Of a DNA stretch of 13,532 nt, positions 9,715 to 10,547 are shown one piece after another. Within the stretch, counting starts at the first letter, position 1. Each line of letters opens with the position of its first letter. The stretch covers positions 1-13,532 of IMG/VR virus record IMGVR_UViG_2778261085_000011. The stretch is one strand, 5' to 3'. Below the pieces are notes generated by a model. The model was not told the DNA's origin. It worked only from the letters and a program-made list of their open reading frames with translations, and ran no database searches. The position numbers were made by a program, and so were the translations under genes. This DNA is from a virus (lineage: Duplodnaviria; Heunggongvirae; Uroviricota; Caudoviricetes).

Positions 9715-9761
9715 GGTTAGAAGCCCGGTTAGTGTTGACGCACTGCCGGGTTTCGTCGTTT
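9715..9761 (+). repeat. 47-bp direct repeat copy 1, with embedded hairpin followed by a T-rich tract
   Basis: GGTTAGAAGCCCGGTTAGTGTTGACGCACTGCCGGGTTTCGTCGTTT; stem CCCGG..AGTG / CACT.CCGGG; 45/47 identical to copy 2. Confidence 0.85.
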
Positions 9762-10114
9762 CTGAAGCAGGGATAATAAAAGCGTATATGACTTTATTTT
9801 TTAATGAGTTACATGAAAATAATGTTATGTAAGGCTTTTTGTTTATATATAGACCTATAACAATATTGATAGATTTACAGATGGCGACTGCATAAAAAAA
9901 CACAAAATCATAATCACTAACCGCTCGTTTTCCCCATGATGTTATGCAGGGGGTGAGATACGTGAAACTAGACTGCGAAAGCAATGCCTGGTTTATCGTC
10001 CCAGCCGTATGCGTGGAGAGTTCCTGGCTCCGTGCAGAAGGAAATGAATACGAATAAAAACAGTCAGTGCCGTGAGCTGAGGAACCACGGCATATTACTA
10101 TGCAGGTGACCATT

Positions 10115-10345
10115 ATGAACGATAAAAATTTAATAAAAATACTATCACCAACGAGGAGGAAACGGCGTAAAAAAATGGAGCAAAAGCATGATGTCGAGAC
10201 ATTCACACCATGTGTATTTGCCCTTGAGCAGTTTCTTAAAAGGCATAAGCGTATAGTCATGGGACGATATTCCTGGAAAGTAATTAGCGGCAAAGCTCCC
10301 AAAAAACAGGAACAGTCCAGTTGTAATTCTCTACATTCGCCATAA
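10115..10345 (+). CDS. Small basic hypothetical protein (76 aa), paralog of 11045-11242
   Basis: ATG at 10115 with AGGTGA 5 nt upstream. Shares F-x-PC-x-F-x-LE-x-FLK...MG...WK and a Lys/Arg-rich N-terminus with the 11045-11242 product; same-frame conservation of the two paralogs supports plus-strand coding. Confidence 0.55.
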
Positions 10346-10500
10346 CCCTTCTTGGTTACATCTGGAGTCATCGGTGCAAACATGAAAAATTTCCGACTAA
10401 ACATATATTCACGGTACACAGCCAGGAAGGTGTATATAAATTTAGGGTGAGTTTGGGTATGCTGTGTTCCAGCCATAATCGTTACCTCATTTAACGGTTT

Positions 10501-10547
10501 GGTTAGAAGCCCGGTTAGTGTTAGCGCACTGCCGGGTTTCGTCGTTT
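10501..10547 (+). repeat. 47-bp direct repeat copy 2 (hairpin plus T-tract), about 155 nt downstream of gene 10115-10345
   Basis: GGTTAGAAGCCCGGTTAGTGTTAGCGCACTGCCGGGTTTCGTCGTTT; could act as a plus-strand intrinsic terminator. Confidence 0.85.

Follow-up and report, generated by a model that had tools for sequence, protein, structure and literature searches.

Two near-identical repeats in diverged tandem modules

The DNA analysed here (the window) comprises the 13,532 nt of a Caudoviricetes virus record, IMGVR_UViG_2778261085_000011 of IMG/VR, and represents an integrative satellite of the P4-like, phage-inducible chromosomal island (PICI) type; related E. coli islands carry matching annotation. 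Our subject is a direct repeat present at 9714-9761 (copy A) and 10500-10547 (copy B), the two small antisense RNAs of which it appears to form part, and the long minus-strand reading frame that these RNAs face. The initial annotation had described the repeats as 47-mers (9715-9761 and 10501-10547) identical at 45/47 positions, and we found that the similarity extends to 46/48; none of 200 dinucleotide-preserving shuffles of the window yielded a match at three mismatches or fewer. On the minus strand each copy is indeed followed by a Shine-Dalgarno (SD) sequence and an ATG, the latter 30 nt past copy A and 24 nt past copy B. Start A (9682-9693) has its SD, GAGG, at 9693-9690 and its ATG at 9684-9682, and gives a 178-residue product (MLNHTTHPQ...) with an Icd-like domain at the end. 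Start B (10474-10488; GAGG at 10488-10485, ATG at 10476-10474) lies in the same frame as start A and is open for 442 codons, down to 9148. A leader-plus-start segment is thus present twice, as had been proposed, and the frame from start B runs without a stop, in antisense, through the bracketed gene at 10115-10345, which stands as a called gene.

Beyond that annotation, we found that the repeats belong to larger diverged modules, that both ATGs share one stop-free frame of 819 codons, and that an antisense RNA gene, not considered before, accounts for each repeat. In a self-comparison of the window, 9714-10043 matches 10500-10844 at 68% identity and a second paralogous stretch, 10134-10397, matches 11061-11324 at 67%, near-identity being confined to the 48 nt. 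Module A contains a pseudogene of the ylcI/ynfO family (9881-10057, plus strand; a stop follows codon 4, at 9881-9895), recognised by its alignment with the intact gene of the E. coli locus L001 and with 10731-10844. Its small gene at 10115-10345 (plus strand) is intact; this paralogue of 11045-11242 is antisense to the long frame, and its 76-residue protein is found unchanged on nine public contigs. In module B the ylcI/ynfO-family gene is intact (10685-10987, plus strand, divergent from leader B; NCBIfam YlcI_YnfO_N, E 5e-20), and the divergent control region at 10560-10667 carries operator-like repeats, GTGAGATACA or GTGATATACA, in four direct copies and one inverted copy, while only an Icd-like N-terminal remnant follows ATG 10476. 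The region consists of two diverged control modules in tandem. Each combines a ylcI-like regulator and a divergent promoter with an antisense RNA and an Icd-like start, and each is half decayed.

Relatives with a single module exist as well. One of them, L001, is colinear with 9153-10043 at 80% identity, and its copy of the repeat is identical to copy B. The two-module arrangement occurs on nine public contigs, including L127, an island with a different replicase, so that two copies and the open frame are kept in islands with different replicases. The 48-nt block itself was found in 973 of 5426 complete E. coli genomes (about 18%), and in every locus whose annotation we inspected it occupies the same leader position, mostly as a single copy. 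The block is 96-100% identical between the diverged modules and across many E. coli genomes, whereas in the wider family described below the same stem varies freely. Possible causes of this near-identity are gene conversion, a shared specificity group or a shared protein partner.

Two putative antisense RNAs related to SymR and RepX

On the plus strand, each repeat makes up the 3' part of a putative small RNA gene. Gene A (9685-9766) has a 5' domain (9685-9720) that covers the complement of the SD, and gene B (10471-10552) covers both AUG and SD; the 3' ends are approximate. Copy A of the repeat comprises the UGGUUAG linker, which is the 3' side of helix P1, followed by the second stem-loop (SL2, 9721-9753) and a short tail, and copy B comprises the linker, SL2 and tail of RNA B. 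By sequence reading, RNA A has an extended -10 box, TGgTATGAT (9669-9677, hexamer TATGAT at 9672-9677), 7 nt before the predicted +1, an A at 9685; the box sits within codons 3-5 of the opposite open reading frame (ORF). The -10 box of RNA B, TATGCT (10458-10463), likewise lies 7 nt before a predicted +1 A, at 10471, which is 3 nt inside the opposite ORF. This is the cis-antisense position of symR, with the promoter among the initial codons of the facing gene and, in both cases, the SD complement within the RNA. The first codons after the two starts are similar, as had been noticed, because the antisense promoter is embedded there and the Icd-like N-termini are shared.

The folding of both copies confirmed a real and strand-biased hairpin. 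The plus-strand RNAs A and B fold at -37.2 kcal/mol (z -5.5) and -33.8 kcal/mol (z -6.1), respectively, whereas the minus-strand RNAs of the two copies reach just -19.3 and -20.5 kcal/mol (z -2.2 and -2.6), and both plus-strand RNAs adopt the two-domain fold of K-12 SymR. The earlier proposal that each copy is a plus-strand hairpin plus T-tract terminator was right about a strong hairpin with a terminator-like tail. The tail after SL2 is an interrupted T-tract, TTTCGTCGTTT(TT); a terminator was taken here to be a GC-rich hairpin followed directly by at least five T. Rather than a free-standing terminator, the hairpin appears to be the 3' part of a small RNA gene that lies in cis-antisense and has a conserved -10 box of its own. 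Of a bifunctional RNA structure, also suggested initially, we found no sign.

The relationship of these RNAs to known ones emerged from covariance models. Model R2 was built only from the loci retrieved as described below, leaving out the window, SymR and RepX. Its sole matches in the window are RNA A (70.5 bits, E about 1e-13) and RNA B (80.0 bits); the corresponding scores with model R1 are 69.7 and 82.4 bits. R2 also recognises the annotated symR of K-12 (46.3 bits, E 5e-8) and the start of repA in RSF1010 (38.9 bits, E 2e-6; the sequence used was pRSF1010_SL1344). These significant matches to a query-free model, together with covariation-supported helices P1, P1a and SL2, place the window RNAs, as judged from sequence, in one family with E. 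coli SymR and RepX, the R1162 countertranscript of IncQ plasmids. In our literature search, no paper naming SymR and RepX together was found, nor anything relevant on SymR-like RNAs, on SymR with Icd or on Icd-like proteins with antisense RNAs. The Rfam matches to SCARNA13, snoU36a, P37 and sX5 were dismissed as noise, the only Rfam match at the repeats being a sub-threshold one to symR.

The correspondence with SymR extends to detail. SymR too measures about 77 nt; its -10 box falls within the opening codons of the gene opposite, and its +1 lies 3 nt behind the start codon, at AG[U/C]CAU. In this RNA, P1 surrounds a hairpin, a UG[A/G]UUAG linker leads to a long SL2 with the GUGUUnnCGCAC apex, and the stems differ from those of the window by compensatory changes. 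The -10 box of K-12 symR, which has been defined by mutation (PMC1891008), aligns with the window boxes TATGAT and TATGCT. SymR represses translation of the gene opposite (PMC1891008), and for the window we infer the same. What distinguishes the window is that the opposite gene is an Icd-ending frame, with Phage_ASH and phage_ICD_like matches instead of SymE (PF08845), that the RNA is present as two copies in tandem modules and that LexA control is not evident. RepX is a 75-nt antisense RNA that covers the ribosome-binding site (RBS) and start of repA, has two stem-loops separated by a GUUA spacer and is a FinO ligand (PMC8136791). The window RNAs have the same layout, two stem-loops and a GUUA spacer in antisense to RBS and AUG, and share with RepX the AGCCAU, the anti-SD hairpin, the UGGUUAG and SL2, the repA start being AUG-GCU. 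RepX differs in setting plasmid copy number via repA-repC, the gene that faces the window RNAs not being repA, and the apex of its SL2 is different. P22 sar, in the arrangement arc - sar - ant, is comparable in being a small antisense RNA that starts within the 5' part of the gene it regulates, whose RBS it covers, and that lies beside ribbon-helix-helix-type repressor genes; the resemblance is functional, however, as R2 did not detect sar and so lends no support to family membership. A blastn search of phages returned one match only, an Erwinia phage. In Erwinia phage Midgardsormr38 (L130, 1970-2053), an SL2-like element scoring 40 bits with R2 is flanked by an Arc-family gene and an antirepressor gene, which is exactly the position of sar in P22.

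Relatives were collected in one scan of species-representative genomes with the pattern TGGTTAG-N11-GTGTTNNCGCAC, which gave at least 120 loci; the counts below refer to the matches listed in that scan. About 100 of the loci share features that the pattern did not force, namely AGCCAT (the complement of ATG-GCT), an anti-SD hairpin and SL2 complementarity. A TAnnnT box lies 7 nt before the +1 in 67 of 100 members and 6 nt before it in 13 more. For 101 aligned sequences, RNAalifold and pair counts identified 24 pairs in three helices, 17 of them with compensatory changes. Paired cells amount to 91.5%, compared with 71.3% in shuffles and at most 47% when partner columns are slid, and changes on both sides were counted in 506 cells, against 170 in shuffles. 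Outside the columns forced by the search pattern, G-U outnumbers A-C by 237:23, which identifies the plus strand as the folded RNA. SymR fits this picture, its AGUCAU/UGAUU covarying with the AGCCAU/UGGUU of the window and most relatives. The apex of SL2 is absent from RepX and from L002, and in a sample selected by pattern its conservation cannot be read.

The hosts of these relatives include Enterobacterales, other Gamma-, Alpha- and Betaproteobacteria, Desulfobacterota, Acidobacteriota and Actinomycetota, and covariation of the stems extends across phyla. Wherever the context was inspected, an SD and a start codon face the element; the initial annotation had named unrelated contexts without leader similarity as grounds for rejecting its reading, and such contexts were not seen. 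Nearly all opposite ORFs begin with Met-Ala, yet their families are diverse. Among 94 relatives, 22 are Icd-like, while SymE, Cas1 and serine recombinases account for four each, tyrosine recombinases for four to five and Bro-N for two; Dam, a P4-alpha-like primase, HNH and ArdA appear once each. In Acidobacteriota (L004, L031, L066 and L104), the same antisense-RNA module lies over the Met-Ala start of Cas1-family genes encoding 234-509 residues. Two family members within 8 kb were also seen in Pectobacterium/Xenorhabdus islands (740-826 and 5620-5705 in L044; 4995-5081 and 751-838 in L108), the second copies lacking the search pattern and being found by the covariance model alone. On an IncR plasmid (L124, 2517-2603) and in 116 plasmid records from Klebsiella, E. 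coli and Salmonella, the module consists of the antisense RNA, an ORF beginning MAGSQHTQTRPEF... and a divergent small gene, which may encode a ribbon-helix-helix protein; most of the listed records have no annotated feature under the antisense-RNA match.

A long open frame across the immunity region

Both internal starts lie within a minus-strand stretch free of stops over 819 codons (9151-11607). The long ORF itself extends over 9148-11565, its candidate starts being GTG at 11565 and ATG at 11550 after GAGG at 11563-11560. Directly upstream is an alpA-family gene (11570-11776, minus strand; taken from the ORF list, with Pfam Phage_AlpA matched by the identical gene in L127 and L128), whose stop is at 11572-11570. 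Over 9151-11607 the frame has no stop at all, whereas the remaining two frames of this strand have 49 and 42 and shuffled sequences contain 33.2 on average; between the repeats the corresponding numbers are zero, 17 and 16, with a shuffle average of 12.3. The shuffles, together with the presence of the frame in relatives, rule out the 805-codon ORF as an artefact or a product of chance. The frame is antisense to three plus-strand genes and the ylcI pseudogene, crosses both leaders and the isrK and C4 elements, and has an Icd-like end. When synonymous codons of the three plus-strand genes were shuffled, none was significant singly (probabilities of zero stops 0.14, 0.85 and 0.22), so the signal comes from the whole stretch and not from any single plus-strand gene. 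Equivalent ORFs occupy the same position in relatives, with 791 codons in L127, 614 in L002 and a range of 474-791; only part of them share their frame with the short Icd-like start.

The 3' end of the long frame holds a 62-residue Icd-like ORF (9148-9336, minus strand; NCBIfam phage_ICD_like, E 1.7e-15), the equivalent of P4 Kil. Upstream of it on the same strand are a C4/P4-CI-type immunity RNA (9391-9478; Rfam RF01695, 76.4 bits, gathering threshold 45) and an isrK/c4-a1b1 element (9500-9589) with a seqA-like target and a terminator. The latter is matched by RF01394 with 80 bits (isrK, 9500-9576) and by RF03163 with 39.8 bits against a gathering threshold of 46.7, and has a terminator-like site at 9522-9504. 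A candidate isrK promoter, identified by eye and not called by the scan, consists of TTGCTC at 9612-9607, an 18-nt spacer and TATGAT at 9588-9583. The Pfam family Phage_ASH (PF10554) matches residues 36-126 of ORF 9148-9684, which are the isrK and C4 RNA genes (9391-9589, minus strand) in translation; in L001, PGAP likewise places an 'ash family protein' pseudogene over the RNA-bearing frame. We therefore do not count the 'ash family protein' as a genuine domain, since what Pfam matches is the eta-frame translation of the two RNA genes.

The layout is that of P4 eta/kil, in which a long ORF next to alpA passes over the seqA/isrK and CI/C4 genes and ends in a Kil/Icd-like peptide. In P4, ORF 8168-8812 spans the isrK-like and C4/CI RNA genes and ends in the 65-residue Icd-like Kil. 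According to Forti et al. 1999, as cited in PMC10111431, translation of eta prevents CI-dependent termination, an effect known for P4 only, and Kil is a nested in-frame product. By analogy, we interpret the long frame as an enlarged counterpart of P4 eta. Nested in-frame starts and a Kil/Icd-like peptide of about 62-65 residues are common to both, whereas the P4 ORF has 214 codons and neither a divergent ylcI module nor an RNA of the SymR/RepX type, and the frame of the window has about 800 codons. The immI region of P1/P7 (c4 RNA - icd - ant) and Salmonella IsrK present C4 RNA, a1b1/isrK targets and an Icd-like ORF in the same order; they differ in that their operon-encoded C4 RNA acts in trans, while the window adds an upstream cis-antisense layer.

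Elsewhere in the window, an integrase gene (12291-13532) and a gene for a RepA-family helicase (6807-8213) are encoded on the minus strand. Just 3' of the helicase gene, at 6615-6803 on the plus strand, there are six CTCCCCAC octamers, 0.3 being expected by chance; they look iteron-like and could mark a replication origin. Between alpA and the integrase gene (11842-11881) a 20-nt unit, AAAACAGTACCCACCGTTTT, occurs twice as a near-palindrome. A perfect tetranucleotide tract, (CCAG) x 13.5, at 1495-1548 could be a site of strand slippage or phase variation. Other repeats include a 213-nt direct repeat with 84% identity (2519-2731 and 3763-3975) and inverted repeats at 4067-4153 and 4372-4459, with 72-nt arms (25 nt at 92% complementarity) spaced 218-343 nt apart.

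A proposed translational lock and its alternatives

Taken together, we consider the repeats to be the linker and 3' stem-loop of two cis-antisense RNAs of the SymR/RepX family, about 77-82 nt long and read from the plus strand, that lock the starts of an eta-like frame; we put the probability of this reading at roughly three in four. Most likely, both RNAs block translation at the opposite starts. Each RNA would be transcribed constitutively from the -10 box in the first codons of the opposite ORF, would cross the start codon region and the SD and would end after the GC-rich hairpin. It would then pair with the leader of the minus-strand mRNA, which would come from the divergent and probably YlcI-controlled promoters. 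Pairing would cover the SD, together with the AUG in the case of copy B, prevent ribosome loading at ATG 9684 or ATG 10476 and probably expose the duplex to RNases. The near-identity of the 48-nt SL2 blocks could allow either RNA to act on its own leader and on that of the other module. One expected outcome is that no Icd-ending products would be made out of schedule. Another is that ribosomes would not pass through the C4/isrK region; such passage, to judge from P4, would defeat RNA immunity. The two RNAs might thus act as a threshold lock, in which, again by analogy with P4, the Icd-ending frame would be translated, and RNA immunity thereby bypassed, only when transcripts from the repressor-controlled divergent promoters outnumber the antisense RNA.

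Several observations weigh against this reading. Transcription of both RNAs from the plus strand is inferred from sequence. A generic promoter scan called neither antisense promoter, and neither has a good -35; a simple terminator scan called neither hairpin, and SL2 is followed by an interrupted T-tract. The predicted +1 of copy A falls just outside the AUG, so that only the SD region would be covered. The Rfam symR model, RF01809, matches the two RNAs below its gathering threshold of 61 (34.5 bits at 9685-9757 and 35.9 bits at 10471-10543). Likewise, RF00043 (Plasmid_R1162) gives only 13.1 bits, against a threshold of 55, and does so on the mRNA-sense strand of copy B (10469-10541). A bona fide Pectobacterium SymE locus, however, scores just 35.3 bits with Rfam symR, which shows how narrow that model is, and an acidobacterial relative reaches 32.9 bits with RF00043. 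As to orientation, the RF00043 consensus contains CUAACCA, a GGAG hairpin and AUGGCU and matches the mRNA-sense strand (also at 3369-3443 in L008), so the model appears to be oriented opposite to its namesake antisense RNA. The conservation of TGGTTAG and GTGTTnnCGCAC is partly a matter of ascertainment, because the relatives were collected by a sequence pattern. The long frame could be held open for a reason other than translation. Finally, the covariance model found no family member in phage P4, and since P4 has no such RNA, the link to eta-type immunity bypass is an extrapolation.

A different purpose for the same RNA deserves the most attention among the alternatives, although we regard it as unlikely. 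Each RNA could be the antitoxin of a type I toxin-antitoxin system, serving addiction or abortive infection and directed against an Icd-like division inhibitor, with no part in bypassing C4 immunity. The antisense arrangement typical of such systems is present in the window, and SymR-SymE is itself classed as one (PMC1891008). Icd and Kil are growth inhibitors according to annotation and the P4 literature (PMC10111431), and in the 22 Icd-like relatives a short Icd-like protein lies directly opposite the RNA. Yet the same module is found over genes that are not toxins (recombinases, Cas1, primase, Dam and Bro-N). Furthermore, the covered starts of the window are 178 and 442 codons away from the stop, with the immunity RNAs in between, and the frame upstream of them is open too. 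The two roles are in any case not mutually exclusive.

Much less probable is a function on the minus strand, where the hairpin would be an element of the mRNA 5' leader (a stabiliser, an attenuator, a protein-binding site or an RNase P-type signal, in the form of a hairpin followed by CUAACCA) and the plus-strand features would be incidental. The hairpin does lie in the 5' untranslated region, 24-30 nt before the starts, the Rfam R1162 model does match in the mRNA-sense orientation, and RNase P processes the C4 and CI RNAs found in operons of this type. However, the fold on this strand is weak (z about -2, as opposed to -5.5 to -6.1 on the plus strand), the 237:23 excess of G-U over A-C would leave the minus strand with A-C mismatches, and the plus-strand -10 box is conserved at a fixed spacing. 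The proven members of the family, SymR and RepX, are antisense RNAs (PMC1891008, PMC8136791). The hairpins could also be plain intrinsic terminators that stop plus-strand read-through, with no regulatory antisense RNA involved. A GC-rich hairpin followed by a T-rich tail on the plus strand agrees with this, but upstream of either hairpin there is no plus-strand gene in need of a terminator, only the antisense of the Icd-ending frame, and the terminator scan passed over both. Plain terminators would also leave unexplained the conserved -10 box and +1, the pairing of the start-codon complement in P1 and the anti-SD hairpin, and we consider them improbable. Least credible is the idea that the repeats are functionless junction scars or recombination sites of a recent cassette of about 740 bp, close to what the initial annotation had envisaged as an inserted or duplicated segment: direct repeats do bracket a segment, single-module relatives such as L001 exist and no complete E. 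coli genome matches a 1.8-kb query over at least 80% of its length, but a recent tandem duplication is ruled out by flanks that are just 67-68% identical beyond the 48 nt, with decayed modules and paralogous genes continuing on both sides, and the widespread block keeps its leader context in the inspected loci, its stems covary across phyla and the arrangement is stable on nine contigs and on two island backbones with the frame open.

The element is a real and functional-looking feature that is unannotated in the annotation examined. Among the E. coli matches listed none is annotated as an RNA, and the gene is present on IncR and other plasmids as well; its surroundings are instead partly annotated as 'ash family' or Icd-like pseudogenes. 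Judged against R1 and R2, the symR and R1162 models of Rfam are too narrow. We also considered a broader proposal, on which our own judgement is evenly balanced: SymR, a chromosomal type I antitoxin, and RepX, a copy-number RNA of IncQ plasmids, would be two sampled members of an old and portable antisense lock that has been grafted onto the first gene of many mobile-element modules and, in P4-like satellites, layered on C4/CI immunity. The lock may be a cassette of about 120 bp, consisting of a 5' untranslated region, an SD, an AUG-GCU start, promoter-bearing first codons and the opposed RNA. Its hosts may include Icd/Kil, SymE, serine and tyrosine recombinases, stand-alone Cas1, primase, Dam and Bro antirepressors, and its range may cover Pseudomonadota, Acidobacteriota, Actinomycetota and Desulfobacterota. 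The role of the lock in P4-like satellites may be to control whether the eta-like frame is translated, and the two copies of the window would be cross-reactive. For P4-like and PICI-type satellites, the wiring would comprise three stacked controls of RNA or translation, the antisense lock, C4/isrK immunity and an eta-type read-through frame, and the family shared by SymR and RepX suggests a reusable translational lock for dangerous genes of mobile elements.

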